From the IMG/VR virus record IMGVR_UViG_3300017613_002261: a stretch of DNA of 64,000 nt; one strand, written 5' to 3'. Origin of the DNA: a virus. The notes under the pieces are model-generated. The model did no database searches. It was given only the letters and a program-made list of their open reading frames with translations, and had not been told where the DNA came from. The position numbers and the translations under genes were made by a program. Below, one piece after another: positions 304 to 36,295 of this stretch (its first letter is position 1; each line of letters opens with the position of its first letter).

Positions 304-583
304 TGTCTAACTCCTTTAAGTTTAAAATTATTGTTTTTAGTTTGTAGATAGCTAAGGGATAACAATTAACACAATCTCCATACATTATTATATTAGTCCT
401 CATATCAAACCGATATTCCCATCCAAAAAGATCAAATAAGACTAGTAAAAACATAGTAATTATATTATGTACTATTTTTCCTATTCTAGTTTTTCACTTA
501 TATAAAAACCAGTATTAGGGCAATAATGAAGATAGTTATCTGGAAAAGGTTCTGACATTTGCTTATAAAATAAATTAAAAAAA

Positions 584-1409: not shown

Positions 1410-1411
1410 AA

Positions 1412-1729
1412 TTAATCCTGAAATTTTGATAATATCATTTCTTGTTCACGATCCATTGATGACATATCACGTTTTTTATTGTTTCCAATAATTTCATCAT
1501 TCCAAGATTTATTATTAAGATATGTTTCAGGATTTTTCCTATACTGTTTATCAGGAGTAGAGTTCAAATAATTTGGCAATGTTTCAAATATTTTATCTAT
1601 ATCTTCTTTAGATAATTTAACGAACTTTTTATAACATTTTTCTTTAGATGCTTTTTTATCATACAGATCCCAAAAACGATTAAACGATTCTATGTCAGGC
1701 TGATCTATACTAACCTGATCTAATCTAAT
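1412..1729 (-). CDS. conserved phage protein (FNRFW..YDKK...NPETYLNNKSWNDE type), no canonical start codon
   Basis: 105-codon open frame with protein-like sequence (DQPDIESFNRFWDLYDKKASKEKCYKKFVKLSKEDIDKIFETLPNYLNSTPDKQYRKNPETYLNNKSWNDE). The first in-frame ATG/GTG/TTG comes too late, so the ORF track missed it. Confidence 0.45.
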   Translation of the reverse strand: MRLDQVSIDQPDIESFNRFWDLYDKKASKEKCYKKFVKLSKEDIDKIFETLPNYLNSTPDKQYRKNPETYLNNKSWNDEIIGNNKKRDMSSMDREQEMILSKFQD

Positions 1730-1790
1730 CTAATCTGATCTATACTAGACTGATCTAATCTAATCTGGGTTTCCATTTGGTTTCCATTTG
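1700..1790. repeat. iteron cluster: 4 x CTGATCTA-type units (15/20/15 nt spacing) plus 2 x 11-nt GTTTCCATTTG
   Basis: Read directly: ctgatctatactaac ctgatctaatctaatctaat ctgatctatactaga ctgatctaatctaat, then gtttccatttg gtttccatttg. Confidence 0.85.
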
Positions 1791-1868
1791 GTAAACCATC
1801 TTTTTTCCTAATTCTATATACGTTTTATTAGCGTCTAAGCCTAAATTTTTTAAATGTTCCTTATACAT
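1755..1868 (-). CDS. 37-aa ORF ending at a TAG inside the first iteron
   Basis: MYKEHLKNLGLDANKTYIELGKKMVYQMETKWKPRLD. It has an ATG but a weak RBS, and it is offset by +1 from the downstream open frame 1412-1729. Confidence 0.3.
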   Translation of the reverse strand: MYKEHLKNLGLDANKTYIELGKKMVYQMETKWKPRLD

Positions 1869-1935
1869 AGAGTCTTGTTTTCTGTCTGTTCTAATAGTAT
1901 TATTGACTAACCAATGTTTAATCCTCTATTAATTA

Positions 1936-2376
1936 TTAATACAAAGTAAATTGAAGTATGTTCCCGTTTAGAGTAAACATAATGAGGCCATTATTAAATC
2001 TATATAAAACTGAAGCAAGTAACATGGAACTGCTCAGACTTATATCCGCTTTATTTTTAAAAGAGACTATCTCCTCAAAGGAAGCATCTTTCTTAGAGAA
2101 AAACTCTTTAACATCGTCATAAGTACATTGTATCTTGATGTTAAATAATAGTTCGTTCATTCCTTTAAAGAAGCTATAATCCTCAGGGGAAAGCCCTTCA
2201 TATAAAAGCCTCTCTTCTTTTGTTAGATAAGGAAATTCTTCTTCTGTTAATGGATGACTGAAATTACAAGATTCTTTAGGGCATTTTAAAAAATGAAGAG
2301 TATTGTTTGTATCAGCGATAAATGCGGAACCATATTTTAGATACGTACCACAGTTATCACATGCTTTAAAACTCAT
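1936..2376 (-). CDS. hypothetical protein with N-terminal zinc-ribbon-like CxxC...CxxxxC
   Basis: 146-aa ORF with CDNC...CPKESC near the N-terminus. Confidence 0.55.
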   Translation of the reverse strand: MSFKACDNCGTYLKYGSAFIADTNNTLHFLKCPKESCNFSHPLTEEEFPYLTKEERLLYEGLSPEDYSFFKGMNELLFNIKIQCTYDDVKEFFSKKDASFEEIVSFKNKADISLSSSMLLASVLYRFNNGLIMFTLNGNILQFTLY

Positions 2377-2385
2377 AAATTACTC

Positions 2386-2568
2386 CTACCAAGTAAAACT
2401 TTTAAAAGATCCAGAACCTTTAGGCATATATCTTTTAATTTTTGTTGAATTACACTCAGGACAAGAGATAGAGTAATTTCCTACTCTCCATTGCTCATAT
2501 CTTGCTATTCCTAATCTAAACTTCTCAAACACGTGAGAACACTCACACCTGAAATAATACGAAATCAT
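2386..2568 (-). CDS. FmdB/CxxC_CxxC_SSSS-like zinc-ribbon protein
   Basis: YYFRCECSHVFEKF...SCPECNSTKIKR pattern. Confidence 0.5.
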   Translation of the reverse strand: MISYYFRCECSHVFEKFRLGIARYEQWRVGNYSISCPECNSTKIKRYMPKGSGSFKSFTW

Positions 2569-2577
2569 AAAATCACC

Positions 2578-2763
2578 TTAAAAACCGAAATAATCTTTCC
2601 AAAACGTTCGATAAGTAAATCTATCATAAAAGCTATACTGTTTCTTTCCACACTTAGTACAAATTCGAACTCCAGTAGACTTACCATGCTCTTCTTCGCC
2701 TTTCCTAACAAAAGGTATCCACCGATGCTCATGCTTTATTAATCTACCAATAAATTTAAACAC
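2578..2763 (-). CDS. small zinc-ribbon protein
   Basis: 61 aa with a CTKCGKK motif. Tightly packed with neighbours. Confidence 0.45.
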   Translation of the reverse strand: MFKFIGRLIKHEHRWIPFVRKGEEEHGKSTGVRICTKCGKKQYSFYDRFTYRTFWKDYFGF

Positions 2764-2796
2764 TATGTTTCCTTACTAAATATTAAAATAAAACAG

Positions 2797-3012
2797 TTAA
2801 CAATTAATTATCTCTTTACGAGAAAGTAAGTTAGTTGAATTATTCCGGACTTGTTTATCACTTGAGTCTCCTTTAGAGAAGTTAGGTGGAGTAGTATAAT
2901 AACAAACATGACAATAAAATCCCTCTGATAAATGCTGACCAAAGGAATAGCAATTACAGTTAGAGCAAAAGCCTATAATAGGAGATACTGCAGATGTTCC
3001 CGAGGAAGTCAT
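2797..3012 (-). CDS. small Cys-rich protein
   Basis: 71 aa with CSNCNC...CHVC. Overlaps the start of the next gene by 4 nt. Confidence 0.45.
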   Translation of the reverse strand: MTSSGTSAVSPIIGFCSNCNCYSFGQHLSEGFYCHVCYYTTPPNFSKGDSSDKQVRNNSTNLLSRKEIINC

Positions 3013-4007
3013 ACATCTATCTCCAATCCTTCTCGCGCCATTTCGATATTAAAAATGTTATCTCTTTCGAATTGACTTACGCCCAACATAATTGTGACAT
3101 CACTTTTAATTTGATCAAGCTTAGAATCTGAATGTGCTGGATTATAATGAGTGCATATAAGTTTATCTCTAATATTTGCTTGTATTGCATTCTCGATTGC
3201 CATGTCATAAGTACTGTGTCCAAATCCTTGAACAACCATTTTATATGATTCGTATTCTTCATGAGTATATTGAGTATCATGGATCATTACATCACAGTCT
3301 TTAGCAAAGTTTATTACTGCTTTATCTCCGCCTGTTTTTGATTCATTATCCCATATGCACGCTACTGACTTACCTTTGAATTTATCAAAATTAGTGTTGG
3401 ATCCACATAAATCAAGATGTGGATCCACATTACATTCTTTATTATCTAACTTACAGTTAGCACAATCTTTGTTGTGTAGAGCTGTAACTTTAAAATATAA
3501 AGCACCTTGCTGTGGATGGGAAGGTGCATAGGCTTGCATAACATCTATTTTCATACTACCTAATGGCGATGTGATTTTGTCTCCATCTTTTAATACGTTA
3601 TGTTTTCTTTCTGACTTTAAATCTTTATATTCAATAGGAAACGTTGGAGGAAGCATGCTTTTATCAAGTACTTTACCTACATGCATGTTTAATGCTTTCA
3701 TTCCATAAAGATTTAACTTTGCATTTGGAAAATAATTAGGAGCAAAAAATGGAAATGCTTGGGTATGGTCTGGATGAAGATGTGTAAATAACATCATGAT
3801 ATTAAGATCTTCTTTACCTGCAAAATGGTTACCAATAATATCTTTACCTAGTCGTATTGCACCTGTTCCACAATCAATAATTACTCTATCTATTTTGCCA
3901 TCTACTTCATTAGTAAAAGTAACACAAGTTGTATTGCCTCCGTACTCATTTGTATCTTTACCTGGTGTTGGGTAAGAGCCCCGAACTCCGTAAAACTTAA
4001 TTTTCAT
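3009..4007 (-). CDS. metallo-beta-lactamase-fold hydrolase/phosphodiesterase with Cys-rich insertion
   Basis: N-terminus KFYGVRGSYPTPG...GGNTTCV, DCGTG, and HxHxDH motif (FTHLHPDHTQ). Insertion CANCKLDNKECNVDPHLDLC. Confidence 0.75.
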   Translation of the reverse strand: MKIKFYGVRGSYPTPGKDTNEYGGNTTCVTFTNEVDGKIDRVIIDCGTGAIRLGKDIIGNHFAGKEDLNIMMLFTHLHPDHTQAFPFFAPNYFPNAKLNLYGMKALNMHVGKVLDKSMLPPTFPIEYKDLKSERKHNVLKDGDKITSPLGSMKIDVMQAYAPSHPQQGALYFKVTALHNKDCANCKLDNKECNVDPHLDLCGSNTNFDKFKGKSVACIWDNESKTGGDKAVINFAKDCDVMIHDTQYTHEEYESYKMVVQGFGHSTYDMAIENAIQANIRDKLICTHYNPAHSDSKLDQIKSDVTIMLGVSQFERDNIFNIEMAREGLEIDV

Positions 4008-4174
4008 AATTATTCTCCTTTATATTCTTCTGCGCAACATTGCCAGTGTACTGAAATTGCTAAGGCATTATATGCTTCGCCTGATGCTACTTTTCCTTAT
4101 CTTCTCTACTACGAAGGCCTAAAGGGATAAGAGTAATATCATCCCTCTTTTAAATGGCTCCTCACAAAATTGAG

Positions 4175-4204
4175 ATATATATATATATCTATCTATCTAT
4201 CTAT
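4175..4204. repeat. compound microsatellite (AT)7(CTAT)4
   Basis: Read directly: atatatatatatat ctatctatctatctat, in a 390-nt intergenic gap. Confidence 0.9.
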
Positions 4205-4398
4205 CCTTTCACTACTAAGGAGATGTTCTGAATGTAAAGGATCGAATTTTCTAAGCATAAAATTCCTGTATTTTTAAATAACATATAACTACTTCATAAG
4301 ATTTATGCCGTAAAATATTAATTGAATTATAAATTCGCTTTGCAAGTTTAAATGCAATATCTATAAAAGATATAATATACTCTATACCTATGAATCTC

Positions 4399-4806
4399 CT
4401 AATAATAAGTTAAAATAGATTTAGAAAAATGTCTCTTCTCTACATAAGAATATAAATAATATACATAATACTTATGCATACTTATATACACTAAAGAAGA
4501 AAGTAATACTAAGAAAAATATAAAATGTTTAACGGTCATTCCACCAAAGAACCTTTGAATTAACTTTCTTTCCGTTACGATAAGTCCATTTATGAGACTT
4601 AGATGAATAAGATGCAGTGGAAGGATGCCCGTATCTAAAATAATGTTTACCCATCTAGTGTTAGATGGAATTGCATAGAAAGTTGAATATTTTGATCTAA
4701 TGTCATGAGATCTTCCTGACTTACATTTACCACAAATACCTGAGATATCGGACCAGCTAGCTCCGTATTTTGTGCCACAATGAGAACAAACTGATGGAAA
4801 ACTCAT
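4399..4806 (-). CDS. zinc-ribbon plus transmembrane protein
   Basis: N-terminal CSHCGTK...CGKCKSG followed by hydrophobic segments. Confidence 0.5.
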   Translation of the reverse strand: MSFPSVCSHCGTKYGASWSDISGICGKCKSGRSHDIRSKYSTFYAIPSNTRWVNIILDTGILPLHLIHLSLINGLIVTERKLIQRFFGGMTVKHFIFFLVLLSSLVYISMHKYYVYYLYSYVEKRHFSKSILTYY

Positions 4807-5219
4807 TTACGTTCCCATTCTGTGTAACCCGCTTTCCATCGAGGAAGAACTTTAGAATTGTCTCCAACAAGAACTTCTTTGTTCCAGTCAATCTTCTTTG
4901 ATCGACCTTTATGGTCAACATGAACAAAGATGGCATCACACTCACAGACTCTCTTAGCTTCTTTAGTAACCCAAATGTGAATCTTAAGAGAAGAATTTCC
5001 TTTAGAAACTTCTTCAGAATGAAATTGCAAGATGTCTCCTACTTTAACTGGATACTTAAATGCAATATTTGAAATATTGGCGATTACATTAAGCCCCTTG
5101 ATAATAAGAGATGCATGGATTGCCGCTGCTTCATCTACCCATTCGAGTAGTTTTCCTCCAAAGAGGTTTCCATTGACTCCGATATCTCGAGTAAAACATA
5201 TATGTCTAGTTATTAACAT
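4803..5219 (-). CDS. acyl-CoA thioesterase (hotdog fold, YciA-like)
   Basis: GNLFGGKLLEWVDEAAAIHA motif, about 138 aa, GGGAG RBS. Confidence 0.7.
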   Translation of the reverse strand: MLITRHICFTRDIGVNGNLFGGKLLEWVDEAAAIHASLIIKGLNVIANISNIAFKYPVKVGDILQFHSEEVSKGNSSLKIHIWVTKEAKRVCECDAIFVHVDHKGRSKKIDWNKEVLVGDNSKVLPRWKAGYTEWERK

Positions 5220-5258
5220 AGACTCTCCCTAGAACTATAAATAAGATAACATTCTAAT

Positions 5259-5591
5259 CTATCTAAGAAAGGCGGATATGTTTCGATGAAAAATATCAAA
5301 ATCTACAAAGCCTGTACATCCAACATATTTACCGAACATGTCCAAAGATCTTAATTTATTCAAATCCATATTAAATTCAAAAGCAAAAGGATCCTTTACC
5401 CAATCAATAGGTTTATAAATCACGTGTTTCCCTGAATTATCCCGCTCAAAAAGAGGAGAATTATCAAAAAGCTCATAACACTTAACTAAATCTTCGTCAG
5501 ACATCTCACGAGGATATCTTGTATCCTCTTCAGAAACATGTGCGGGAGTATTACATGATTGATCTCGTTTTCCCGTTTCTTCCTCTAACAT
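5259..5591 (-). CDS. hypothetical protein
   Basis: 110-aa ORF, co-directional, no motif recognised. Confidence 0.5.
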   Translation of the reverse strand: MLEEETGKRDQSCNTPAHVSEEDTRYPREMSDEDLVKCYELFDNSPLFERDNSGKHVIYKPIDWVKDPFAFEFNMDLNKLRSLDMFGKYVGCTGFVDFDIFHRNISAFLR

Positions 5592-5736
5592 TTCTATAAA
5601 AAGGTTGTCTTCTCTCTCGTATTCAGTATTCGTTCATTATTAGACATTTATTACTCCTTAAAATTATTTTGATCTGGTTCTGGATAACTTCATATTAAAT
5701 TTCTGTAAAAATCTATCACTACAAAAAATAACATTC

Positions 5737-6336
5737 CTAAGCGATAAAGAGATTCACTGGATTATCTTTATGAATATCATGGTCGTAATCACGCTTAAAA
5801 TGATCTACTCTAAAAGGAGTTGTTATTAGATGGAAACCTGACTTTGTCGGAAGAGTTAATAATACTTTCTCCCCTACAGGTGCTAATGTAGATAAATAAG
5901 ATTTTAAATCTTCCATATCACTTGCGTCCGTACAATTATCAACATCAACAATCCACTTCTTAGAGGACTCGTTTGATTTCTTTCCACAAGAGGATGCATA
6001 AACTCGGCGGGCTGCTCTATAGTTGGAATCCTGAGAAACAAGCTTAGCTAGTTCAGACAAGCTTGATAATGCAGTCTTTCTAAAAGATCTTCTGTTTAGA
6101 TTTATTACCGCTCTTGCATTGAAAATCACGCATAACTTCTTTATTTCATTGTAATGTTCATTAAGATAATTAAGATTATTAATGAAGTATTCCTTAATTA
6201 CTCTGACACTGCAGGACTGCGTTAGATTATCTTTCTTTCTCTGCAGAATTTGTAAGAAATAAAAATCATCTTCCGAATCGAAAGATAGTAAAGGAGATAT
6301 TCGTTCTAAATTGTCTATCATAATACTCACATACAA
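5737..6336 (-). CDS. hypothetical protein with prim-pol/AEP-like motif order (tentative)
   Basis: WIVDVDNC (DxD), TKSGFHLI (sGxH) and IHKDNP occur in the order expected for AEP motifs I-III. Assignment is weak. Confidence 0.3.
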   Translation of the reverse strand: MYVSIMIDNLERISPLLSFDSEDDFYFLQILQRKKDNLTQSCSVRVIKEYFINNLNYLNEHYNEIKKLCVIFNARAVINLNRRSFRKTALSSLSELAKLVSQDSNYRAARRVYASSCGKKSNESSKKWIVDVDNCTDASDMEDLKSYLSTLAPVGEKVLLTLPTKSGFHLITTPFRVDHFKRDYDHDIHKDNPVNLFIA

Positions 6337-6345
6337 ATAAAGGCA

Positions 6346-6567
6346 TTAAGAATTAGCTTCACAGATAGTGTACCACTGCTTCTTAGAGTCAATAAGAGTC
6401 CTTGGAAGACTAATTTTAGACTCATTGACAAGGCTATTGTTTCCGTTTACTCTAATAGATTTAAACTTGATTAAACCAGACTTTCTATTACGTCGAGCCA
6501 TAACTATATACTCTGCATCAGAATATGTATAATAGCTTAGAGGCTCCCATTTGTTCCATTGTGACAT
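6346..6567 (-). CDS. hypothetical protein
   Basis: 73-aa ORF. Its AGGAG RBS is embedded in the end of def. Confidence 0.5.
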   Translation of the reverse strand: MSQWNKWEPLSYYTYSDAEYIVMARRNRKSGLIKFKSIRVNGNNSLVNESKISLPRTLIDSKKQWYTICEANS

Positions 6568-6568
6568 A

Positions 6569-7063
6569 TTAACTCCTTTGAGGCCCTTCGTCGGACTTGA
6601 ACATAAAAAAATATTTACTTAAATCTGATTCTGAAATATTTAAATCACGGTCTGATATTCCGTTTAAATGATCTATTTCGTGCTGAGCAATTACTGCAGG
6701 TAATCCTTCAAGCTTAACTAAGCTAGATGTCTTATCACGAGGATCCTCATACTGTAATTGAATTTCTTTATATCTAAGAATAATAAATGACTCTCCTGGA
6801 TATGATAAGCAGCCTTCGCGAACTAACTCTTTATCATGAAATCCTACATAAGCAGGATTAAAGAAAATATCTGTAGGTAGTTTAAGAGATTTGAATTTAC
6901 GTGCAACAAAGAAACGATGGTTTAATCCGACCTGATTAGCACTTAATGCATACGCAGCCTTGTTCTTAATAAATTTTAAAAGTTGAATAGATGATTTAAA
7001 AGCTTCCTTATTGTCTGTAATCTTAGGTATCTTTGTATATAATAAAGCATTCGTGAAATTAAT
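6569..7063 (-). CDS. def: peptide deformylase (start codon unresolved)
   Basis: My own translation of a gap in the ORF track shows all three Def motifs: SANQVGL (motif 1-like), EGCLSYPG (motif 2), QHEIDHLNG (motif 3). No in-frame ATG/GTG/TTG; the frame opens after TAA at 7073-7075. Confidence 0.75.
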   Translation of the reverse strand: MNFTNALLYTKIPKITDNKEAFKSSIQLLKFIKNKAAYALSANQVGLNHRFFVARKFKSLKLPTDIFFNPAYVGFHDKELVREGCLSYPGESFIILRYKEIQLQYEDPRDKTSSLVKLEGLPAVIAQHEIDHLNGISDRDLNISESDLSKYFFMFKSDEGPQRS

Positions 7064-7086
7064 TCCCCTAAATTATCCTTTATAAG

Positions 7087-7329
7087 TCATGTCTGATATT
7101 TAATATATCTACCATTACATCTTGGGCAACGTTGCGTACCTACCATATCAGATATCTTCCATTCAGTATAACAATCAAAACATTTAAGGCGATTAGAGGT
7201 ATTATCAACTTCTGAAGCATCTAGAGCCTCTTTAAACATCTTATAAGATTCTTTACTTCGGGCAACATTTATCTCGCATTTGTAAATAAATCTTTCTGCC
7301 GCTTCTATTAATAATCTTTTATTAGCCAT
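7087..7329 (-). CDS. small zinc-ribbon protein
   Basis: CFDC...CPRCNG pair. Overlaps the upstream gene by 8 nt. Confidence 0.5.
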   Translation of the reverse strand: MANKRLLIEAAERFIYKCEINVARSKESYKMFKEALDASEVDNTSNRLKCFDCYTEWKISDMVGTQRCPRCNGRYIKYQT

Positions 7330-7717
7330 TGAAACTCCCTTCTCTTTCCTGTCTCGCTGTTTCTTCTAGTAACAATGGTTCGGGGTCTTGCCAGGTATCT
7401 GGTTTCATTATCTTTCCGTCTTGTCTACGGATGACCTTGCCATCAACGACTTTCTGCATATTAGCTCGGTGAACAATTTCAAACAGTGGATCAAGGTTCA
7501 TACCATGTCGGGCTGCTGTGTCACATATATAATATATTGCATCGACTAAAGCATCAGTTTGTTCAGTTATATTACCTGCTTCGGCTAACTCTTGCATTTC
7601 ATCATTAACCATATTCTTAATAAAAGAAACCTTTTCTTCTGAAAGTAATATTGGTTTCTCCGGAACGTCTCCATCACAACATGCTTTAGTAAATTCCCTA
7701 ACTTTCTCTGAATACAT
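7322..7717 (-). CDS. all-alpha NTP pyrophosphohydrolase (MazG/HisE-like)
   Basis: EMQELAEA...TDALVDAIYY...RANMQKV...DGKIMKPDTWQDP pattern. Confidence 0.65.
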   Translation of the reverse strand: MYSEKVREFTKACCDGDVPEKPILLSEEKVSFIKNMVNDEMQELAEAGNITEQTDALVDAIYYICDTAARHGMNLDPLFEIVHRANMQKVVDGKVIRRQDGKIMKPDTWQDPEPLLLEETARQEREGSFNG

Positions 7718-8076
7718 AATTATTTCCTTTTACATTTTAAAATTCTGTACAATTTGTTCTTGACATAAGAGATTAGGCTGTAGAAGTGTGACATAAATGA
7801 GGAAATCAACCTAGGAGACGTAGGCTTCTCTGCTAGATCAGAAGAGGAAAGTCCATCTGAGAAGAAAACTATCGGAGGTGGAGGATAAACTGTCACACCG
7901 AACTTTGTTCTGTATTTGTACATATCTAATCTGAATGAATCATCCTCTTGCATAAAGAATCCTAAATAGATCAATACTATTCCGCCCCGAGAAACAATGC
8001 TTCTCTTCCGGATATTTTTCAAGGCAAGTAAAATTGTACTTAAAGCTTTTATTGGATCAATCGCATATACCGGCAT

Positions 8077-10001
8077 TTCCTACGGTAGCCTAAGTCTTAC
8101 TCGTTATCTTTACTCAATAGAAAGTTTCTGGTGCTCCGACGCCATTTCATAAATACTGTTGGGTTAGCTATTTGAACCAGGTATTTATTTACTTGAACCG
8201 AATTATAGTTATTGTAAGGATTGCTCATCCCGACCTATCCTTCCGAGCCATTCCTCTTGAGGAATAAACTTTCAAAACCATGAGGTTCTAATTCCGCATA
8301 GTATACTGGCCGTCCATCATTCCGGCACATGAATTAGTTATTGAAATTGGGAGTGGGGCTATCGTTTATCGCCTCAATAACAAAGTTGGATAAAGATGTT
8401 TCTGTATTGTCCCGGTTATAAATTATAGAATTCAAATGTCCTATACAGAACTAATTCCGTTTGAATACTGTCAGAGTTACGCTATTAATAAGTCTCTGGT
8501 CTAAGAAATCGAAGGACTCACACCTCTTCAAACGCTACCATCGTACTAAGTATAATAGATTCCTCTACTATCACTGTCTTATTATAATAATTATCTCTTA
8601 TCCTTTTCAGAGTTTTATCTAGTAGCTATTACGACTCAGGTAAATAACCAGGCTTCTCTAGCATTCGATATCCAACCTCTTAATCAAGGGAGACACCTAA
8701 TTTCGTTTAAACTTGGTGAACAGTCTTGCAAGTTTAAGTCCGTTAGGATTTTATAGGTAATAAAAACGGCTTGTTTTTACACTAAAAGAACCTGCCTCAT
8801 TTATCTCTAACGAAAGGTATTTAACTCTATTACCGAGCTAAACCATACAACAATTAGAGTGTCAATTCTACTTATTAAAGGATGGCGACTCCAAGGCCTG
8901 CCTACCCTAATTACCTATTTGCAGAAGTGAGGAATTGAACCTCACATGATCTCAATTTTAGGCTTATTTACTGCAGATATTACATTCGAAAATGTATCTC
9001 TACATCTGAGAACTCATCCTCTCGACCCCGTCGAGCCTTACGGATTAAATCTGTAGCAATAACCATTCTGCGATAATATAATACATAAAGGAGGAGCGTC
9101 TTAACATTAGACCATGGACACAAGAGATGGATAATCTTGGATCGGTCCGGATTCTAACCGGCATCTCTCCTTTTAGATAAAAGGGCATGCTTTACGGACA
9201 TAACCTACAAGAAAGACGTTCCTCTCTTTCTCTGCCGATAGAATATAATAGTCAGTGCTTCTCTACTTATTCACTATTATATGCATCTCGCTATCAATCC
9301 TAGAAGTGAAGATATCCTGCAAAATATCTATTAAGATTGAAGGGGATCGAACCCAAATAGAAATGTAAATAACATTCTATTCTCCAAAGACAATCTCACT
9401 CTTTAACATACTTAAAATAAACCGGGGCAAACTTGAAGCCTTACCATGGCGACTTCTAACGAGCTTTGCCGAAACCCGAGATACTAATCTCTCAACGGAG
9501 ACCCTGCCCTATGCAGGCGAAATTGAGAGTATCAATAAATCAATGACGGATTCTTGTAATGCCTTCCGTCTCAGGCTCTTTCGCTCAGTAACTAATGTTA
9601 CTGGCATGGCAGAGAACCATCTCCTGTTGTTATGATACAAACCTAGGGAGAGGTATTTGCAGAATAAATGAATTTACTCTGACCCATATATCTATACAAC
9701 CTTACAGGATAAAAGGCTTTGAAGAGTATCAAATAAATGATAAGCTAGGAATCACCCTAGTAGGGAATTACTTACTGTTACCCTCTTTCTCTTCGCCGTT
9801 TCACAGAGAGTGACTTGCTAGTGCAGTGGTATCATCTGAGAGAGGTAAGTATAGCATCCCGCATATGTAGATGTCTCACATTACGTAATCACCTAAGATT
9901 CAACCATTCAGAAGTTAATTAAGCTTCTGTAATGGAATTGAGACTTCCATATTCTGCGATGCTATGCTTAATATATAAATTAAGGTTTTATTTTATAACA
10001 C
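8077..10001 (-). ncRNA. unclassified large structured-RNA candidate or degenerate tRNA array
   Basis: No credible ORF on the coding strand, and visibly higher G+C than flanks. Many perfect local helices: 9489-9495/9523-9529 enclosing 9503-9507/9513-9517; 9586-9592/9597-9603; 9545-9550/9565-9570; 9210-9216/9225-9231; 9169-9175/9178-9184. T-arm-like modules at 8928-8944, 9147-9161 and 9342-9354. Confidence 0.4.
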
Positions 10002-10148
10002 TCAATCTTCTACATTTTCAGTGTTTGTACAGTTTAAACAAATAAACCTGTCTTGATCATAAGGACCTTCGTTTCCTTCTTCACAGAATATCATACCCTG
10101 CCAATGACATACAGGGCATTTTCTAATTGTATCTGAATAATTACACAT
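10002..10148 (-). CDS. 48-aa zinc-ribbon protein
   Basis: MCNYSDTIRKCPVCHWQGMIFCEEGNEGPYDQDRFICLNCTNTENVED, with an AGAGGA RBS. Below the track's length cut-off. Confidence 0.5.
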   Translation of the reverse strand: MCNYSDTIRKCPVCHWQGMIFCEEGNEGPYDQDRFICLNCTNTENVED

Positions 10149-10170
10149 AATATCCTCTTTTATATAATAT

Positions 10171-10236
10171 TTTAATGGGTTGGAGAGCTTATTATTAATT
10201 TCTCCTACTATCAGTTCTTGGATACCCGTTAATTTC
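10171..10236 (-). promoter_or_regulatory. copy A of the conserved intergenic element (candidate phage promoter plus 5' hairpin)
   Basis: Minus strand reads AAATTAACGGGTATCCAAGAACTGATAGTAG GAGAA-loop-CTCTCC AACCCATTAAAA. Lies upstream of the 48-aa ORF and the ORF-free block. Confidence 0.45.
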
Positions 10237-10279
10237 TCAAACTAAACAAGAGTCCTTTTTGAATATTAAAAACATCCGC

Positions 10280-10636
10280 CTACGTCTGCTTATCTACTAA
10301 TTTTAAATACATATCTTTACACTTAGAGCATCTTGATAAGAGGTCACGTAGGGATAATAGTCTATCTACCTTGGCATAACGCAAATCATCTGATAGATAT
10401 TCTAAAGATGGTTGCTCATAAGGTGACTTATGATTAACTCCTCTTAAGATTAACTCCTCTACAAGAGGATCATGACGAGACTGCATCGCATCCGGTTCTA
10501 TCTGAGTAACAGGTCTTATTCTTCCCGATATATTATGCATCTTTACAAAATTATGGCGATGTTTATGAATCTCAAAATGCTCTCCTAGAAGGTGCTGAAT
10601 ACATAAAATTTTAGGGTTTACCCTCCACATTCTCAT
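10280..10636 (-). CDS. pyrimidine-dimer DNA glycosylase-like (DenV/Pyr_excise family)
   Basis: N-terminus MRMWRVNPKILCIQHLLGEHFEIH resembles the family signature. Confidence 0.55.
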   Translation of the reverse strand: MRMWRVNPKILCIQHLLGEHFEIHKHRHNFVKMHNISGRIRPVTQIEPDAMQSRHDPLVEELILRGVNHKSPYEQPSLEYLSDDLRYAKVDRLLSLRDLLSRCSKCKDMYLKLVDKQT

Positions 10637-10898
10637 AAACCACTCTCCTTTAAATTAACGAAATCAAATACACTGATTTATAAACCTCTTTAATGCTTTC
10701 ATGATTTAATCCTTTTAGATGCAATTGATTTACGTCTGAAATCGTTATTTGTATCTCTTTCACAGAGCTTTACGAAAATATATTTGTCATACTAGTACTT
10801 ATTTGATAATGCTCTAGTGAAATCAATACTCTCTGACTTAGTATAAAAATCTGCATACAGATAAGCCACACATAAAGGAGCATCTACTATTAATATTT

Positions 10899-11141
10899 TC
10901 ATATCATATGAAATGAGCTATGACCATTAATACGACAGTCTACTAAGATATAACCCTCAGTATAAATAACCTTATGGAATCCAGGACAAACATGACCTTT
11001 CTCTCTTTCTAAACATAATGGAGTGTCTTTAACTACGAGATAAGCTGAATCTAAAGCCTGTTTATAGGACAAAGGACAATTAGCACATGAAACTATAGCT
11101 GTAGCTCCTTCTGAAACCTCTAAATAATCTTTTTTATTCAT
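10899..11141 (-). CDS. Cys-rich hypothetical protein
   Basis: 80-aa ORF with a TAAGGAG RBS and multiple Cys (CANC, C, CPG, C). Confidence 0.5.
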   Translation of the reverse strand: MNKKDYLEVSEGATAIVSCANCPLSYKQALDSAYLVVKDTPLCLEREKGHVCPGFHKVIYTEGYILVDCRINGHSSFHMI

Positions 11142-11233
11142 AACATACTCCTTATGTAAATAATTTGAAATTATATACTGGTTTCACAAAATTTATAACA
11201 TCAATTGTTTCTTTGTAAAGTATATCCATGCTC

Positions 11234-11326
11234 CTACCCTATTAAATAATGACAGTTAGAGCATAATAAATCACATTTATCAACCTCTTCTTTTAATCTT
11301 TCTTTCTGTCTCGCTGTTAAAGCCAT
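11234..11326 (-). pseudogene. HNH endonuclease C-terminal remnant (30 codons)
   Basis: MALTARQKERLKEEVDKCDLLCSNCHYLIG contains the C-terminal CxxC..CH part of an HNH motif and nothing else. Confidence 0.4.
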
Positions 11327-11367
11327 ACTCTTATTATTTAAATAAAGGATAAAAATAACAAACAATA

Positions 11368-11523
11368 TCATTCTTCTTTAATAGGCATAATAGATATATA
11401 ATATTTAGCAAATGTTGGATGATTTAAAAATGAGTACATCTGTGATTTAGTAGTAGAGTCGATATAGGACTCATCAGGGAGCATTACATTTGCATTGTTA
11501 TATTTCGCTTTAATATTAAACAT
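11368..11523 (-). pseudogene. rtcB: RtcB RNA ligase N-terminal remnant (51 codons)
   Basis: MFNIKAKYNNANVMLPDESYIDSTTKSQMYSFLNHPTFAKYYISIMPIKEE stops exactly where RtcB proteins continue with MPDxHxG. Confidence 0.45.
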
Positions 11524-11534
11524 TCTCCAGGATA

Positions 11535-12509
11535 TTAGTTGATTACTTTAAAAGGTCTGTTTGCTTTCTTACGAGGAGCCGGAGTGTTATCTTCGGGAGT
11601 GCCTAAATCAATGTTAGTGGCATCCGCTCCTGATACAAACTGACGTAGAACATTGTAATCATTGTCGATTCCCTCATCAGATCTTCTTTCTAAGATCATC
11701 GGGACATATTTGAATACCTGAATCAGTCGAAGAATATTTGAGAGGCCAAGACCTCCTTCTCTTCCGATACCTGCATGACGATCTTTCTTATTGCCTAGCT
11801 TGCATACTGTTGGTTCTACATCATTTAAGTGAACTAGTGATAAGACATCATTTACTTCGTAATATACTTCCCGAACGAACTCTTCCGTGGTTACGTCATA
11901 GCCAGCTGCAAATGCGTGCGCTGTATCAATACATATTCCAGTAGCATCTCGACCTAAATATTTATTTACACCCCTAGATAGCTTTGCTAGTTCTACTATA
12001 TTAGATCCTATACGTGTTCCGTCTCCTGCAGCGTTTTCAAAAATAAGTTTAACAGATCCTGAATACGATTCAAATATCTTTAATATAGAATCATCTACCT
12101 TAGCTCTCGCTTCTTCAGTAGTAGCTTCTTTACCCGCTGACCCTATATGAATATTAACACCTTCTATACCTAATTTCTCTGCTAGATATAAATGGGCAAT
12201 AACACCTTTGTAGGATAAGATACGATGTTGTTCCTTTGCTGAGCATAGATTAATGTAAAAGGGAGCATGGGCAAATATTCTTAATCCATCAACATGAGTA
12301 CGGAATTCATGTATAGTATCTTTATCAAACTTGGAGGGGAACCATGACTGAACAGGGCCTAACATTATTTGATAAGTTGATACACCATCCCTCTTAGCTC
12401 TTGCAATAGAGTTTAAGATTGAAGGTTCACTTGAATAATGTGCCCCTATGAAATAGGGAGCACTTAAATTGGATAACGATTTTAATAAGTCTGTAACTAG
12501 ATCATTCAT
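11535..12509 (-). CDS. nfo: endonuclease IV (AP endonuclease family 2)
   Basis: HAPFYINL, IHIGS, FENAAGDG, CIDTAHAFAAGYD, VHLNDV...DRHAGIG motifs. I prefer the ATG at 12509 (AAAGGA RBS) over the GTG at 12563 used by the track. Confidence 0.85.
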   Translation of the reverse strand: MNDLVTDLLKSLSNLSAPYFIGAHYSSEPSILNSIARAKRDGVSTYQIMLGPVQSWFPSKFDKDTIHEFRTHVDGLRIFAHAPFYINLCSAKEQHRILSYKGVIAHLYLAEKLGIEGVNIHIGSAGKEATTEEARAKVDDSILKIFESYSGSVKLIFENAAGDGTRIGSNIVELAKLSRGVNKYLGRDATGICIDTAHAFAAGYDVTTEEFVREVYYEVNDVLSLVHLNDVEPTVCKLGNKKDRHAGIGREGGLGLSNILRLIQVFKYVPMILERRSDEGIDNDYNVLRQFVSGADATNIDLGTPEDNTPAPRKKANRPFKVIN

Positions 12510-12562
12510 TTCAAATCCTTTGATATTATTAATAATATTTATATTAAATAAAGGAGGTAGCA

Positions 12563-13444
12563 CTACTTATCATAATGAACGATATACTTGCATCCGTCAT
12601 AAGATGCTTCGTTAGGGCCTGTCCAAACAGAATCGACAGTGATTATCTTTCCTCTATTCTCGAGTTTGTAATAATCAGACATTAATCTACGGTTATGACC
12701 TCTAATATATCTAGGAACGGGTAATTGGGATGAAGGTGAATCTTTCTTAGCTAAATTATATCGTTTTCTAATCTCTGGAAGAGATAAGAGATTAAAGGTA
12801 GGACGTGATTGAAGGTTAATCATCTTCTTATCTCGTTTTCTTCTTTTAACATTCAAAGGGTTACAGGAGACTATCCACTTAGCTGGGCCGTATAAGTATC
12901 TTAAATGCCATACTAAATCACTTACATTAGCATTGAAGGACCCTATAGAACCCTCATCAATATTAGGAGACGATGAAGAAAGTAAAGGAGATTTTCTTAC
13001 TTTATAGTTTCTATCAGAATCTCTGTAGTACATTTCATATTGGAGAGGGATTATTCTGCTCTTCTCTTTAGGAGAACATAAATCAAATAAACCTATCATA
13101 CTCCCTATGCTCTCTGCAAGACATAACGTTATCTCAAAATATACAGGATTATTCATAACTTCTGAGATATTCTCTAATATAAGTATCTCTTCTGGAGACA
13201 ATGCTCTCATATAATAAGCAGAAAAGCTGTCCTCAGTTAATACAGGGTTTGATAAATTGTCGATATACTTCTCAACAATAAGTGTTTCAGGGAAAGGTAA
13301 TCCGATTTCGTAAGCCGGCTCTTCTTTTTGAATATTAGTAATTTCTGGAACTATAAATAACGAACTACTATTATATGCTGGAACTCTTTCAGGGAAAAAT
13401 CTATTGATAATAGAACTAAATTCTTGGTATGATGATTTATACAT
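12563..13444 (-). CDS. hypothetical protein
   Basis: 293-aa ORF, co-directional, no motif recognised. Confidence 0.6.
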   Translation of the reverse strand: MYKSSYQEFSSIINRFFPERVPAYNSSSLFIVPEITNIQKEEPAYEIGLPFPETLIVEKYIDNLSNPVLTEDSFSAYYMRALSPEEILILENISEVMNNPVYFEITLCLAESIGSMIGLFDLCSPKEKSRIIPLQYEMYYRDSDRNYKVRKSPLLSSSSPNIDEGSIGSFNANVSDLVWHLRYLYGPAKWIVSCNPLNVKRRKRDKKMINLQSRPTFNLLSLPEIRKRYNLAKKDSPSSQLPVPRYIRGHNRRLMSDYYKLENRGKIITVDSVWTGPNEASYDGCKYIVHYDK

Positions 13445-13495
13445 TGCATACTCCTAGAGTATAAAATATATAAATTAATTGTAAAGATTATAACA

Positions 13496-14143
13496 TTAAA
13501 ACCCGCGTAACATGTATATAGTATCTTCAGCGACCTCTTTAATATTTTCTAGATATATCGCTGCTTCACTATCTTTGTTCTTTACGGCTATCTTTAAATT
13601 AGATAAGGACATTTCAATCTCTTCGATACCGTCTATAACAGCATCCTGATGAGATAAAACACCTGATTTAGACTTCATTACTTTAGCGAAGTTAAGTTGA
13701 CGGAAGAATTTTAGATCGTCTTTATCCCACTTCTCATCAGTATCTTCATACTTCTTCTTTAATCTATCTGCCTCTGCATTTATCTTAGATACTGGAATAT
13801 CTTCTTTCTCTGAAATGTTTAATTTCTTATGAAGATCTCCTTTGACTAAGTCTTTAGGAATCCACTCCTCCGACTGGAAGGAGTCATAGGAAGATTTTAG
13901 TAAATCCGATACTTTAAATAATGTTAGAAGATTTCCTTCGACAGTATAATCAAATCCCATAAGATTTAATTCTCTCTCCATCTGATCATAAACCCGAGTC
14001 ATACTCTTAGCTTTTGATTTTATATGGTAAATGATAGAACCATTCTCGAGTTTCTCGGGAGATCCTAAAGAAAATAATTCGCTTACCTTATTATAGGCAG
14101 TGTTAAATGCATTATCATTGGAAATAAATGGTTTTGATTTCAT
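13496..14143 (-). CDS. hypothetical protein
   Basis: ORF track 13496-14179. The ATG at 14143 gives a TAATG overlap with the upstream stop. Confidence 0.55.
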   Translation of the reverse strand: MKSKPFISNDNAFNTAYNKVSELFSLGSPEKLENGSIIYHIKSKAKSMTRVYDQMERELNLMGFDYTVEGNLLTLFKVSDLLKSSYDSFQSEEWIPKDLVKGDLHKKLNISEKEDIPVSKINAEADRLKKKYEDTDEKWDKDDLKFFRQLNFAKVMKSKSGVLSHQDAVIDGIEEIEMSLSNLKIAVKNKDSEAAIYLENIKEVAEDTIYMLRGF

Positions 14144-14511
14144 TAAATAAGATCCTGATATTCTTTGAATACTGAACATGTATTAGGATTCTCTGAGTTA
14201 GCAATCCATGACTTAACTTCTTTTATAGAATGGAATGAAACTGCAGAGGAGTAAACCGCACATTTTGCTGAAATAAAGAAAGAGCAGTTGTCACAACAAT
14301 GACAGTCAGACGCTATAAAAGAATCTGAAGTTAATGATACTTTAGAAGTACTCTTTAGTAACTTCAGTGCCTTAGCATATAAATATGGTTCTGAAACTTC
14401 TAATACATAAGCCCCTTCTTCCTCAGAATCACGAAGATTGCCGAATAGTTCTAACGTTTGGAAATGATGATTGACCCAGTCAGAGTCTGCCTCGAATTTA
14501 ATATAATTCAT
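14143..14511 (-). CDS. hypothetical Cys-rich protein
   Basis: 122-aa ORF with a CHCCDNC cluster. Confidence 0.55.
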   Translation of the reverse strand: MNYIKFEADSDWVNHHFQTLELFGNLRDSEEEGAYVLEVSEPYLYAKALKLLKSTSKVSLTSDSFIASDCHCCDNCSFFISAKCAVYSSAVSFHSIKEVKSWIANSENPNTCSVFKEYQDLI

Positions 14512-14513
14512 GA

Positions 14514-15002
14514 TTATTGAATTCCTCCAGCATCACGTGTCCATGGCGAATAATGATACTCAGATCCGTTAGAAGAGGATTTCCAATACTGTTGCTCGAA
14601 TCCTTCTCCCCAACCGTCTGATAATTGTCCGTTGAAATAATCTGAGATGGTTGAAACAATTTCCATGTTCTCCTTGTCAGTCTCTCCTGGAATGTAATAA
14701 ACCGTAATAGCAAAAGCTGAAGAACGTAACCCACTCGCATATGCTTTCTTAGCATGTTTGAAAACTGTGCTGTCATATTTCTCTGATGCATAATTTAGCA
14801 AACCATTAGTCTCTTGAAAGTCTTTCTTTAACTGAGAAGATGCTTCGGACATGACGTCTGATGGAACGTCTCTATATGAAACAGGAAAAGATCTTCCTGT
14901 TTTTCTTGATACACGAAACCATCTACCCCTTACCAGAAATTTCTCTTTCTCTAATCCCGAGGAGTTAAATTCTTCTGGTGCTTTAAATGCTTTTGCTTTC
15001 AT
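14514..15002 (-). CDS. hypothetical protein
   Basis: 162-aa ORF, co-directional. The nested ORF 14498-14791 was discounted. Confidence 0.55.
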   Translation of the reverse strand: MKAKAFKAPEEFNSSGLEKEKFLVRGRWFRVSRKTGRSFPVSYRDVPSDVMSEASSQLKKDFQETNGLLNYASEKYDSTVFKHAKKAYASGLRSSAFAITVYYIPGETDKENMEIVSTISDYFNGQLSDGWGEGFEQQYWKSSSNGSEYHYSPWTRDAGGIQ

Positions 15003-15046
15003 AATGTTATTCCTTAAATCTAACTTACATAATAAATTGTTATCAA

Positions 15047-16462
15047 CTACTCAAATAACTCGTTTAAATGAGACTTCGCAATGAAAGAATCCTCTCCCAT
15101 GTAGAAGTCTAATGTTTCTTGATTCTCTAAAAGTCTCTTGTATATCCATGCCTCCACAGTGTTTAATTCATTTGAATTATCGGGATAAACTGAGAGTAAT
15201 GTGTAGTAAAACTGTTTCAATGTCTGTCCTATACGAGATATTCTATCTTGAGACTGAATATACTTTTCGTTGGATAGTGGAGGCGTGTAATATAACGCTC
15301 TGCTGCAATTGACAAATGTGTGACCATGAGTTAAGCAGCTCATTATCGCTACTAAAACCTGCTTATCCCCTTTTATGAAACTCTCTTTATTTGATTCGAA
15401 ATCTGCAGATCTCATATTTCCTTTAAGGAATGTAAATGAAATTCCCATCTCGGATAATACTTCTTTTACCTGATTGAATTCATGAGTCCACTCGCACCAT
15501 ACTATAAGCTGGTTATCTCCAAAATCTTCCATGATATCCCGAAACATATCTCTCTTTGATGATTGCTTCGTGAATTTACCTATACAAACCTGTCTTAATC
15601 TAGTTATCTGAGCCAATAAGTGTTTTATTGGGATGTATTTCCCTTCAAACTGATCTATCCAAATCTTGAAGTCATTTAATATTGAACGGTATACTGAGTA
15701 TTCTTCATCATTTTGCTGACAATCGATCTTTATGAAGTTCTTTGGTGGAAGATCCAGGCACTCATCCTTTGTAAATGTTATTGCATACCGGTCTACAACT
15801 TTCTTCACTGCATAATGATCATATCTAAAGTCACGGGAGAATTCCCTTATAGAGCCACACTCAAAGGCACAAGAACCTTTCATTATATAAAATTGGTTAC
15901 GAATGTTTAAAGTATCACTGACGTAAGGAGTTCCTGTAGAAATTACTTTGATAGGAATAAGTTCTGTTCCTTTATATAAAGATTTGAAGATGGATGTTGT
16001 ATGATACTTAAATTTAGTCGACTCATCGAAAGCTGCCATCGAATATTTCTTTCTACGGATGACTCTCCAAAGGTTTATAAATGCCTCATAGTTAATTATG
16101 TTTACCTTATACCTATTTGATGATATTAATCTAGTCTTTCTCTCCCTATTTCCCATAATCACTAAAACAGATAATTTAGGACAAAACTTCTTAATCTCAT
16201 TCTTAAAGTTTATCATTAAGGACTTTGGAACTACTATTAATATATTTCTAGCTTCTCTCTTTGAAAGTCTATCTAAGAATAAGGAGAGAATTACAAGAGA
16301 TTTCCCTAGACCTGGATGCAGGAATAATGCTGAATGGTTTCTTTGAGAGGAGAAATGGAAAGACATCTTCTGATGATCGTAAAATGACATATCTCCCTTA
16401 AAATGAGATAATACATCATCAGGGATAGGAGCTAAATAATTTTTACGTGGATCTCGAGTCAA
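15047..16462 (-). CDS. SNF2/RAD54-family helicase
   Basis: LHPGLGKS (motif I), AFDEST (DExx box), and a C-terminal helicase lobe (LTHGHTF...QSQDRISRIGQ). TTG start. Confidence 0.8.
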   Translation of the reverse strand: MTRDPRKNYLAPIPDDVLSHFKGDMSFYDHQKMSFHFSSQRNHSALFLHPGLGKSLVILSLFLDRLSKREARNILIVVPKSLMINFKNEIKKFCPKLSVLVIMGNRERKTRLISSNRYKVNIINYEAFINLWRVIRRKKYSMAAFDESTKFKYHTTSIFKSLYKGTELIPIKVISTGTPYVSDTLNIRNQFYIMKGSCAFECGSIREFSRDFRYDHYAVKKVVDRYAITFTKDECLDLPPKNFIKIDCQQNDEEYSVYRSILNDFKIWIDQFEGKYIPIKHLLAQITRLRQVCIGKFTKQSSKRDMFRDIMEDFGDNQLIVWCEWTHEFNQVKEVLSEMGISFTFLKGNMRSADFESNKESFIKGDKQVLVAIMSCLTHGHTFVNCSRALYYTPPLSNEKYIQSQDRISRIGQTLKQFYYTLLSVYPDNSNELNTVEAWIYKRLLENQETLDFYMGEDSFIAKSHLNELFE

Positions 16463-16496
16463 AATAATTCCTTTTACACGGTTATTTATATATAAA

Positions 16497-16563
16497 TTTA
16501 ATGGGTTAGAGAAGATAACATGGAATTTCTCCTACTGTCAGTTCTCCCGTACCCTGTTAATTT
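16497..16563 (-). promoter_or_regulatory. copy B of the conserved intergenic element
   Basis: Minus strand reads AAATTAACAGGGTACGGGAGAACTGACAGTAG GAGAA-loop-TTCTC TAACCCATTAAAT, 35 nt upstream of the SNF2 start. Confidence 0.45.
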
Positions 16564-16738
16564 GTCTCTTGAGAATATCCCAATCGCTTTGAATATCTTT
16601 AGGACAATAACGCATCAGTTTCATGTTGATAAATTCTATTAAATCATATTTATCGCGAAGAAGTTCTTCGAGTTGATTTACAAGAGACTCATTAGTTAAA
16701 TCACTCATCAAGAATCTCTTTAACCTGTTTAAGATCAT
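16538..16738 (-). CDS. hypothetical protein
   Basis: 66-aa ORF. Its TGA stop lies inside element B. Confidence 0.5.
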   Translation of the reverse strand: MILNRLKRFLMSDLTNESLVNQLEELLRDKYDLIEFINMKLMRYCPKDIQSDWDILKRQINRVREN

Positions 16739-16932
16739 GCCTCATAAAAAGCTCGTTAGCCCAAGTGAATAAGAGATTTAAATACTTAATCTTTATTGTA
16801 GAGAACAGAGCGTATAAGACATAACAAAGCTCATACTGAGTTATGTCTTCCTCTTGAATAATGTGGTTAAATTACTTGATTAATTTAATTATTCTTTTAT
16901 GTCCTTCTGATGATATGACCATAGATAATTCC

Positions 16933-36153: not shown

Positions 36154-36295
36154 ATTTACCTCCCAATAAATATTTATTGTTATATATATATATAACAATT
36201 TACTGTATTATAATCTATAATACCCTCTTATGGAATATTTAAGTATTTACGAATATTTGATACCTCTATCGGAGTTAAGTATATGAATTTTCATA

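Follow-up and report, generated by a model that had tools for sequence, protein, structure and literature searches.

Genomic context of the ORF-free block

The window considered here is a 64-kb stretch of DNA (64,000 nucleotides, IMG/VR virus record IMGVR_UViG_3300017613_002261) from a large phage genome. It has a G+C content of 0.336, every gene in it lies on the minus strand, and its gene content includes a helicase, a UvsX-like recombinase and a radical-SAM protein. For two of its ORFs, identical proteins are on record from a 223-kb JGI contig. Positions 8077-10001 form the biggest gap in the window that is free of open reading frames (ORFs), and the minus strand of this block holds no ORF of 50 aa or more. 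A previous, sequence-only reading had offered three explanations for the block: (a) a giant non-coding RNA of the GOLLD or ROOL kind or of a new class, (b) a tRNA array that decayed together with an RtcB repair gene, and (c) intron or ribozyme debris. Here, we analyse the block computationally and tentatively propose that its larger, right-hand part is a structured non-coding RNA locus that belongs to no described family.

Directly upstream of the block on the minus strand lie a 48-aa ORF (10002-10148) and, ahead of that, a promoter-like sequence termed element A (10171-10232), just as the sequence-only reading had placed them. The ORF is Cys-rich and zinc-ribbon-like, with a weak match to Zn_ribbon and a codon-usage log-likelihood ratio (LLR) of 0.197. 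Its stop codon stands approximately 32 nt ahead of the structured domain described below, and no minus-strand terminator was found after it. Element A reads TTAACRGGTAY..AGAACTSAYAGTAG..TCYAACCCATTAAA at this position and follows the general pattern AAATTAACAGGGTAC-NNN-AGAACTSACAGTAG ... TCTAACCCATTAAA over roughly 62-70 nt. The window holds five copies, all on the minus strand (10171-10232, 16497-16559, 38866-38927, 46240-46267 and 59701-59762), where shuffled sequences are expected to yield none. The four other copies precede protein genes directly, without such a block. Three more copies, with up to 87% identity over 69 nt, were found on the IMG/VR contig IMGVR_UViG_3300017527_000423, the fetched parts of which (L092-L094) show no protein similarity to the window and no homologue of the block. 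Single matches in three Bacteroidales metagenome-assembled genomes fall within a rough estimate of chance. Element A may act as a promoter that a transcription factor or polymerase specific to the phage recognises, or else be a mobile regulatory cassette.

The other boundary is set by a doubtful orphan ORF of 118 aa (7720-8076, minus strand). Its LLR of 0.126 is below that of every trusted gene, it has no match in Pfam, PHROG or NCBIfam, and among 1.84 billion representatives it retrieved itself and three weak matches (best E 6.5e-8), these being multi-stretch alignments to very long proteins. The low LLR and the paucity of matches bear out the suspicion previously cast on this ORF. The same cannot be said of the RtcB remnant that had been placed just upstream of the block. 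Pfam gave no support for it, either among the ORFs that were tested in the 5 kb upstream or across the minus-strand frames of 10637-11540, and the RtcB signature motif occurs nowhere in the 64-kb window.

The block does not code for protein

Each of the six frames of the block contains 37-57 stop codons, with TAA, TAG and TGA all dense in every frame. Reassignment of a stop codon was therefore rejected: recoding is unable to open the block because all three stop types are dense throughout. Codon usage in the best frame gave an LLR of at most 0.07 per codon, compared with at least 0.22 for trusted genes, and a period-3 signal was absent. Pfam gave no match in the six frames and PHROG none in the three minus-strand frames, whilst a tblastn search with 3,529 ORFs, taken from the window outside the block and from other phage loci, returned matches at the level of chance only. 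The longest quasi-open minus-strand frame (8099-8453) had no homologue in a search of 5.8 billion proteins, and open stretches just as long are present in other frames of the block too. With no open frame, codon bias or protein homology, a hidden protein gene, whether standard or recoded, was rejected. The block is truly non-coding. On this point the sequence-only reading, which had seen no credible minus-strand ORF here and had advised a check for hidden coding, is in full agreement with the stop-codon, codon-usage, period-3 and protein-family results.

Base composition and folding

Raised G+C in A+T-rich genomes is a classic signature of structural RNA genes. The G+C content of the block is 0.379, which is 7-13 points higher than that of the other intergenic gaps of this phage (0.25-0.31) and ranks seventh among 311 windows of the same size. 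The enrichment reported earlier is thus clear against the other gaps and modest against the genome as a whole. It is also uniform across the block at about 0.37-0.39, with 0.392 for 9412-9997 and 0.373 for 8077-8700, the third that shows no structure; the adjoining ORF 7720-8076 stands at 0.36.

The sequence-only reading had described dense helices, and every helix, T-arm-like and D-arm-like string that it listed is present where it had been placed. Their density is another matter, since helix counts in the block are at chance level: 18 perfect 6-bp hairpins against 13.8 +/- 6.8 in other windows, and 72 helices of at least 8 bp against 75 in shuffled sequence. What does exceed expectation is folding energy, and this for 8701-10001 only. 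We expressed it as a z-score of the native energy relative to shuffled sequences, taking each strand separately. Values for the plus and minus strand respectively were +0.6 and +1.5 for the doubtful ORF 7720-8076, which thereby shows no RNA-structure signal, +0.6 and +0.7 for 8077-8700, -2.9 and -1.7 for 8701-9350, -5.7 and -3.4 for 9351-10001, and -6.1 and -4.1 for 9398-10001. Flanking genes gave values of about 0. A true GOLLD RNA measured in the same way on its own strand gave -3.5 and -1.3, and the segment 9351-10001 and its sub-domains are at least as strong. Significant excess folding is therefore confined to 8701-10001; here the earlier call of a structured non-coding block stands. It fails for 8077-8700, a non-coding stretch (LLR at most 0.07) with no excess structure that is either a spacer or fully decayed sequence.

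The most prominent feature of the structured part is a multi-helix domain of about 590 nt at 9412-9997, which corresponds to no known class. An A/U-rich long-range helix (9412-9423/9985-9997) closes it in the folds of both strands, and its assignment to the minus strand is a tentative one taken from context. Its strongest sub-domain, at 9840-9975, consists of a 13-bp closing helix (9846-9858/9958-9970) around a branched hairpin and reaches z-scores of -6.7 on the plus and -4.1 on the minus strand, with none of 200 shuffles equally stable. A covariance model made from this single sequence found no analogue in 941 kb. A second sub-domain, at 9480-9625 (-3.3 plus, -3.2 minus), contains the nested helices within 9489-9529, 9545-9570 and 9574-9618, the strings of which were verified; both sub-domains are listed on the minus strand. 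Elsewhere in the window, the A+T-rich intergenic gap 36199-36699 (G+C 0.285) shows moderately significant folding on both strands (-3.4 and -3.1).

A tRNA-like element next to the structured domain

We derived a covariance model, R1, from 50 tRNAs belonging to other phages in which a 199-aa gene found near the block (5737-6336, minus strand) also occurs, and scanned the whole window with it on both strands (128 kb) with filters off; the E-values of this model are rough. Its best and single significant match in the 128 kb lies within the block, at 9331-9397 on the minus strand (17.1 bits, E 0.0065; E 0.0002 when the block alone was scanned), and begins 14 nt after the 9412-9997 domain. The acceptor stem of this match is 7 bp long and its anticodon stem 5 bp; the D arm is vestigial, and a canonical T-loop, UUCGAUC, sits on a stem of 3 bp. 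The match lacks CCA, and its anticodon loop, UUAUUUA, would present the anticodon AUU followed by U37. ARAGORN reports it only at -ps90. It falls below Rfam tRNA reporting, whereas real phage tRNAs score 38-70 bits in Rfam; as a yardstick, R1 gives 18.9 bits to the tRNA-like end of a genuine tmRNA. It is not plausible as a decoder and is best described as an aberrant tRNA-like element.

Other pieces reminiscent of tRNA arms are present on the minus strand between this element and about position 8825. A perfect T-arm-like hairpin, UGAGG-UUCAAUU-CCUCA, occupies 8928-8944 (8.7 bits with R1 as a local match to 8929-8943) and is one of five such 5-bp T-arm patterns in the 128 kb. A second, CCGG-UUAGAAU-CCGG, lies at 9147-9161 (4.4 bits) within a branched fold of approximately 100 nt (9135-9236) that is not significant (z -0.9); its loop departs from the T-loop consensus only at the invariant C56, where there is an A. 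Moreover, a weak tRNA-like match at 9008-9080 (7.2 bits, E 7.8 window-wide) carries the consensus D-loop AAUGGUUA, and the D-arm-like string UAGCUCGGUAAUAGAG was verified at 8825-8840, where R1 has no match on the minus strand. Each of these four pieces is individually at chance level. R1 gave 16 matches with E of at most 10 in the window, five of them in the block (3% of the window), and two of these five were on the plus strand; T-arm-like hairpins numbered two in the block against 0.66 expected. Of the tRNA-arm modules listed by the sequence-only reading, the one around 9342-9354 has therefore gained weight as part of a significant tRNA-like fold, and the other arms are near chance.

Comparison with known RNA families

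ARAGORN found no tRNA and no tmRNA in the whole 64 kb, nor did it when introns were allowed or with -ps. Rfam scans took in all 4227 families of Rfam 15. At gathering thresholds the window gave no match, and at E of at most 10 no relevant family was obtained for 7500-10400 or 9320-10010; the low-scoring matches were to unrelated families (microRNAs, snoRNAs, viral and plastid cis-elements and the hairpin ribozyme). As positive controls, the same gathering-threshold scan of other phage loci detected complete GOLLD RNAs in two metagenomic phage contigs (L083:11677-12672, 318.7 bits; L088:8214-9127, 254 bits), tmRNAs in both, and dozens of tRNAs. The library thus recognises such families in comparable phage DNA, since GOLLD, tmRNAs and tRNAs all scored there.

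Against this background, GOLLD (RF02032) was rejected, with no match to the model of its conserved 3′ domain (gathering score 150 bits) even at E of at most 10. Likewise, nhmmer searches with the GOLLD regions of L083 and L088 found nothing in the window and did find each other together with two GOLLD copies cut at contig ends (L006/L067:12825-13404 and L073:3917-4402). ROOL had no match in any Rfam scan, a negative that has no ROOL positive control beside it. The tmRNA models (RF00023 and related) gave no match, and neither did ARAGORN for tmRNA even when relaxed. Group I and group II introns, RNase P RNA and Y RNA-like (YrlA) RNA had no Rfam match at E of at most 10, which leaves the idea of intron or ribozyme debris unsupported. 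A plain tRNA array was rejected as well: no cloverleaf was called by ARAGORN or by Rfam RF00005 (29 bits), and our own model reached at most 17.1 bits. One string does recall RNase P RNA, namely the plus-strand GAGGAAAGTCC at 7843-7853, which is identical to the core of conserved region I of that RNA and sits antisense inside the doubtful ORF 7720-8076. With no Rfam match, no P4 partner and a segment z-score of +0.6, we judged it a coincidence. GOLLD, ROOL, tmRNA, RNase P RNA, introns, Y RNA-like RNAs and a plain tRNA array are excluded as memberships. The Rfam scan that the sequence-only reading had recommended therefore gave no relevant match, and the relaxed tRNA search that it had also recommended gave no intact tRNA, with the 9331-9397 element reported only at -ps90.

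A proposed structured RNA with a tRNA-like module

This locus fits no Rfam 15 family; that it does not code, is raised in G+C, folds more stably than shuffled sequence and matches the tRNA model are likewise observations. From these we propose, with a probability of roughly 0.4, that 8701-10001 is the locus of a structured non-coding RNA outside all described families, read from the minus strand and analogous to the large RNAs of phage tRNA islands; its strand, co-transcription, processing and any function are what we infer. Element A would drive transcription of the locus, on the minus strand and jointly with the 48-aa ORF. The transcript would then carry, in order, the domain of about 590 nt (9997 to 9412), the tRNA-like element (9397 to 9331) and the degenerate arm-like hairpins down to about 8825, with the left 0.6 kb (8077-8700) as an unstructured spacer or decayed sequence. 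In such an arrangement the tRNA-like element would not decode; RNase P and RNase Z would use it as a handle, and their cuts there would fix where the large RNA ends on its 3′ side. The locus would be a functional counterpart of the GOLLD and ROOL RNAs found beside tRNA islands whilst being a member of neither. That the significant tRNA-model match sits in the block, on the gene strand and right after the large domain, counts in favour of this proposal. We regard as unlikely, though worth stating, the stronger claim that 9412-9997 and the linked tRNA-like module are the first example of a large, ornate phage RNA of a new class, similar in function to GOLLD and ROOL but unrelated to them in sequence or fold, in which the tRNA-like handle might serve in processing or in recruiting tRNA-binding factors. 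Of explanation (a), membership of GOLLD or ROOL is thus rejected and a new class is possible.

The domain resembles GOLLD in being phage-borne, several hundred nucleotides long, multi-helical, higher in G+C than its surroundings and adjacent to tRNA or tRNA-like sequence. The spacing is similar too: the GOLLD of L088 ends approximately 10 nt before a tRNA-Met, and the domain described here ends 14 nt before the tRNA-like element. It differs in that its neighbour is an aberrant tRNA-like element and not a tRNA, and in having neither a match to the conserved 3′ domain at E of at most 10 nor nhmmer similarity to the L083 and L088 GOLLD RNAs. ROOL is of similar size (about 580 nt), likewise comes from phages or prophages and tends to be found close to tRNA islands, but the Rfam comparison gave no match and the present RNA is a single sequence with no homologues for a comparable consensus. 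GOLLD and ROOL have been reported near tRNA islands, with tRNAs sometimes inside GOLLD (bioRxiv 10.1101/2024.12.08.627333). The parallel to GOLLD would be an architectural one, a large structured RNA abutting a tRNA, and it agrees with these published settings. Phage tRNA arrays with a tmRNA are similar in having a tRNA-like fold, here just one, and T- and D-arm-like strings on the gene strand, and the arrays of L005, L069 and L088 also have raised G+C. Unlike them, the block holds no tRNA by default ARAGORN or Rfam and no tmRNA, scores 17 bits where theirs score 38-70, and has no primary sequence similarity to them.

A further likeness is to MALAT1 with its mascRNA and to the small stable RNAs of the phage T4 tRNA cluster, in which a long structured RNA is followed by a tRNA-like fold without an encoded CCA. 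tRNAs set the 3′ ends of RNAs embedded in phage tRNA clusters, and mascRNA does so for MALAT1. For the present block this is an architectural analogy only. With the mascRNA type of likeness we count a gene in the same genome region, the ORF 3009-4007 (minus strand, 332 aa), which lies 5.3 kb downstream of the block. It encodes a protein of the metallo-beta-lactamase fold whose best matches are to models of RNase Z (TIGR02651, E 5e-13, positions 28-280 of 302, far below the equivalog cut-off), and it counts in favour of the proposal. The presence of this RNase Z-like ORF in a window without any tRNA gene is an observation in its own right.

Several results weigh against the proposal. The helix counts given above are at chance, the tRNA-like element scores only 17 bits under a model with rough E-values, and no candidate resembles the tRNAs of other phages in primary sequence beyond shuffled controls. 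Moreover, the block has no nucleotide relative in the collections searched. A blastn search with 7700-10300 against a GenBank phage collection (50,697 records), of the kind that the sequence-only reading had proposed for finding homologues, returned no match, and neither did a comparison of the block with 95 phage and metagenome loci (~0.97 Mb). The proteins fare little better, with no relative above about 50% identity among the 5.8 billion proteins; the best non-self match of a conserved neighbouring protein has 49-51% identity, and the helicase is less than 30% identical to those of GenBank phages. The phage is an orphan, and the block is so far known from one sequence. Relatives of the 199-aa protein with 40-49% identity gave 89 loci (L003-L091), which have no other gene in common with window positions 1-16500 and no nucleotide similarity to the block. 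A tRNA or tmRNA occurs within 3 kb of the 199-aa gene in five of 59 loci, no denser than farther away, and this gene was rejected as a marker of tRNA islands. Lastly, some signals favour the opposite strand, and these are taken up below.

Alternative explanations

The block may instead be the relic of a tRNA island, a former tRNA array, perhaps with a large RNA or tmRNA, that has lost its function and that point mutations are wearing down. Its fossils would be the tRNA-like element and the arm-like hairpins, and the folding energy would be inherited rather than selected. The aberrant element and the T- and D-arm-like pieces share one strand and are spaced as the genes of tRNA arrays typically are, and the 9147-9161 loop is off consensus only at C56. 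No intact tRNA exists in the 64-kb window, tRNA arrays of other phages have a comparable G+C (0.36-0.43, in loci that average 0.33-0.40), and 8077-8700 has raised G+C without structure. However, there is a single significant unit, the two T-arm patterns compare with 0.66 expected, and no remnant is like any tRNA of the other phages beyond shuffled controls. The strongest structure (9412-9997, z to -6.7) is found where likeness to tRNA is nil, and the RtcB gene supposed to have decayed alongside was not found in the ORFs and frames tested. Phage genomes quickly delete useless DNA, so that deep erosion with the full 1.9 kb kept would be unexpected. We consider such a relic unlikely, although it is the main rival of our proposal; what survives of explanation (b) is the one significant, aberrant element.

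Less likely still is that the block consists of eroded coding DNA or functionless filler, for example dead genes or a mobile element from a G+C-richer source, in which structure is incidental. The evenness of the G+C, which takes in the unstructured third and nearly extends to ORF 7720-8076, would be accounted for, as would the orphan status and poor codon usage of that ORF and the lack of an RNA family match. Against this stand the protein searches already described, none of which (Pfam in six frames, PHROG in the minus frames, tblastn of 3,529 ORFs, and the search with the longest open stretch) rose above chance, together with the absent period-3 signal. Z-scores of -4 to -6.7 would also be unexpected for dead coding sequence, and the flanking genes have z-scores of about 0.

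A plus-strand RNA, antisense in orientation and convergent with the 48-aa ORF, would extend for about 1.4 kb from a promoter-like site at 8527-8556 to a hairpin and T-run at 9966-9997, and would make the minus-strand tRNA-like match fortuitous. The plus-strand z-score is consistently the stronger (-5.7 against -3.4, -6.1 against -4.1 and -6.7 against -4.1 in the segments named above). Moreover, two U-G wobbles in the strongest domain, in helices 9846-9858/9958-9970 and 9909-9916/9922-9929, become A-C mismatches on the minus strand, and the sigma-70-like promoter site agrees at 10 of 12 positions. The z-score asymmetry is mostly background, however: native energies are nearly equal on the two strands (-175.9 and -181.8 kcal/mol), and what gives the plus strand its advantage is, for the most part, the better folding of shuffled versions of the G-rich minus strand. 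Counts of G-U against A-C over all helices are at chance, and assignment of the strand by such counts was rejected. This also removes the argument from one U-G pair by which the sequence-only reading had favoured the minus strand, the strongest domain pointing the other way. Promoter-like sites are no commoner than in shuffles (17 against 14.3), and the terminator-like stem at 9966-9997 is weak, with one G-C pair only. All genes in the 64 kb, element A, every T-loop consensus string and the tRNA-model match are on the minus strand. We hold the minus strand to be more likely but unproven for the structured RNA, and an antisense transcript of this kind to be very improbable.

We give equally little credence to a cis-acting mRNA element (a long structured 3′ untranslated region, a stabiliser or processing region of the element A/48-aa ORF transcript, or a downstream leader), which would suit the start of the strongest domain some 32 nt past the 48-aa stop codon and the want of an assignable separate minus-strand promoter or terminator, but for which 1.3 kb far exceeds known phage untranslated-region elements and the other four element A copies run straight into protein genes with no such block.

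We return to the proposed structured RNA with its tRNA-like module, for which the block is a reasonable candidate resting on one sequence. GOLLD and ROOL were recently shown to form RNA-only cages. To our knowledge, the function of these cages is not known, and each independent class in the same niche beside tRNA genes narrows the possibilities. If the proposal is correct, an RNA of about 600 nt coupled to a non-decoding tRNA-like fold and a phage RNase Z-like enzyme would offer a testable mechanism of processing. Should the block prove to be a fossil tRNA island, it would be a record of tRNA-gene loss in a giant phage. As a single orphan sequence, its present value is as a seed for deeper metagenome searches.

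Other phage loci and neighbouring genes

The 199-aa protein is a member of phrog_14949, a family widespread among phages, with at least 469 confirmed loci in JGI metagenomes and an invariant FDSEDDFY motif. It has no sequence match in Pfam, NCBIfam or PDB, and some JGI records label its relatives 'phosphoglycerate mutase'. Approximately 10 of the 89 loci with a relative carry tRNA arrays or a tmRNA, and GOLLD is present in four distinct loci (L083, L088, L006/L067 and L073). In L088 the order is tmRNA (7212-7594), GOLLD and an array of 25 tRNA genes. Other probes yielded less: a MazG-like neighbour retrieved bacterial contexts only, and three other window proteins had no match in IMG/VR. The k-mers common to the block and 0.93 Mb of loci were A/T-rich or coding coincidences only. 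An all-against-all comparison of ORF-free gaps gave nothing for the block, though GOLLD and tRNA similarities were recovered among the other loci.

Two ORF-free stretches in these loci fold in excess of chance, match no Rfam family at gathering thresholds and are themselves candidate unknown RNAs, without similarity to the block. L066:16360-17213 reaches a z-score of -5.8 for 16360-16790 on the plus strand. L070:10893-11867, directly upstream of a tRNA, has a z-score of about -2.4 and no relevant Rfam match even at E of at most 5.

Within the window, the gap 6568-7086 (519 nt), listed as ORF-free, holds a peptide deformylase gene at about 6570-7079 on the minus strand (Pep_deformylase, E 2.6e-25). 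There is no ATG, GTG or TTG near the 5′ end of its frame, and the ORF listing missed it for that reason; the gene may start at a non-canonical codon. Three tandem units of a 20-nt repeat, TATATTAATAGAGCAGTTGC, and a degenerate fourth lie at 47799-47868 (minus strand), just upstream of a ribosome-binding site and ATG, and look like an operator or iteron. Lastly, CGCCAGCACAGG occurs in nine copies at a spacing of 12-30 nt (56699-56848, minus strand) within ORF 55827-56894, as a G+C-rich coding repeat in a genome that is otherwise A+T-rich.

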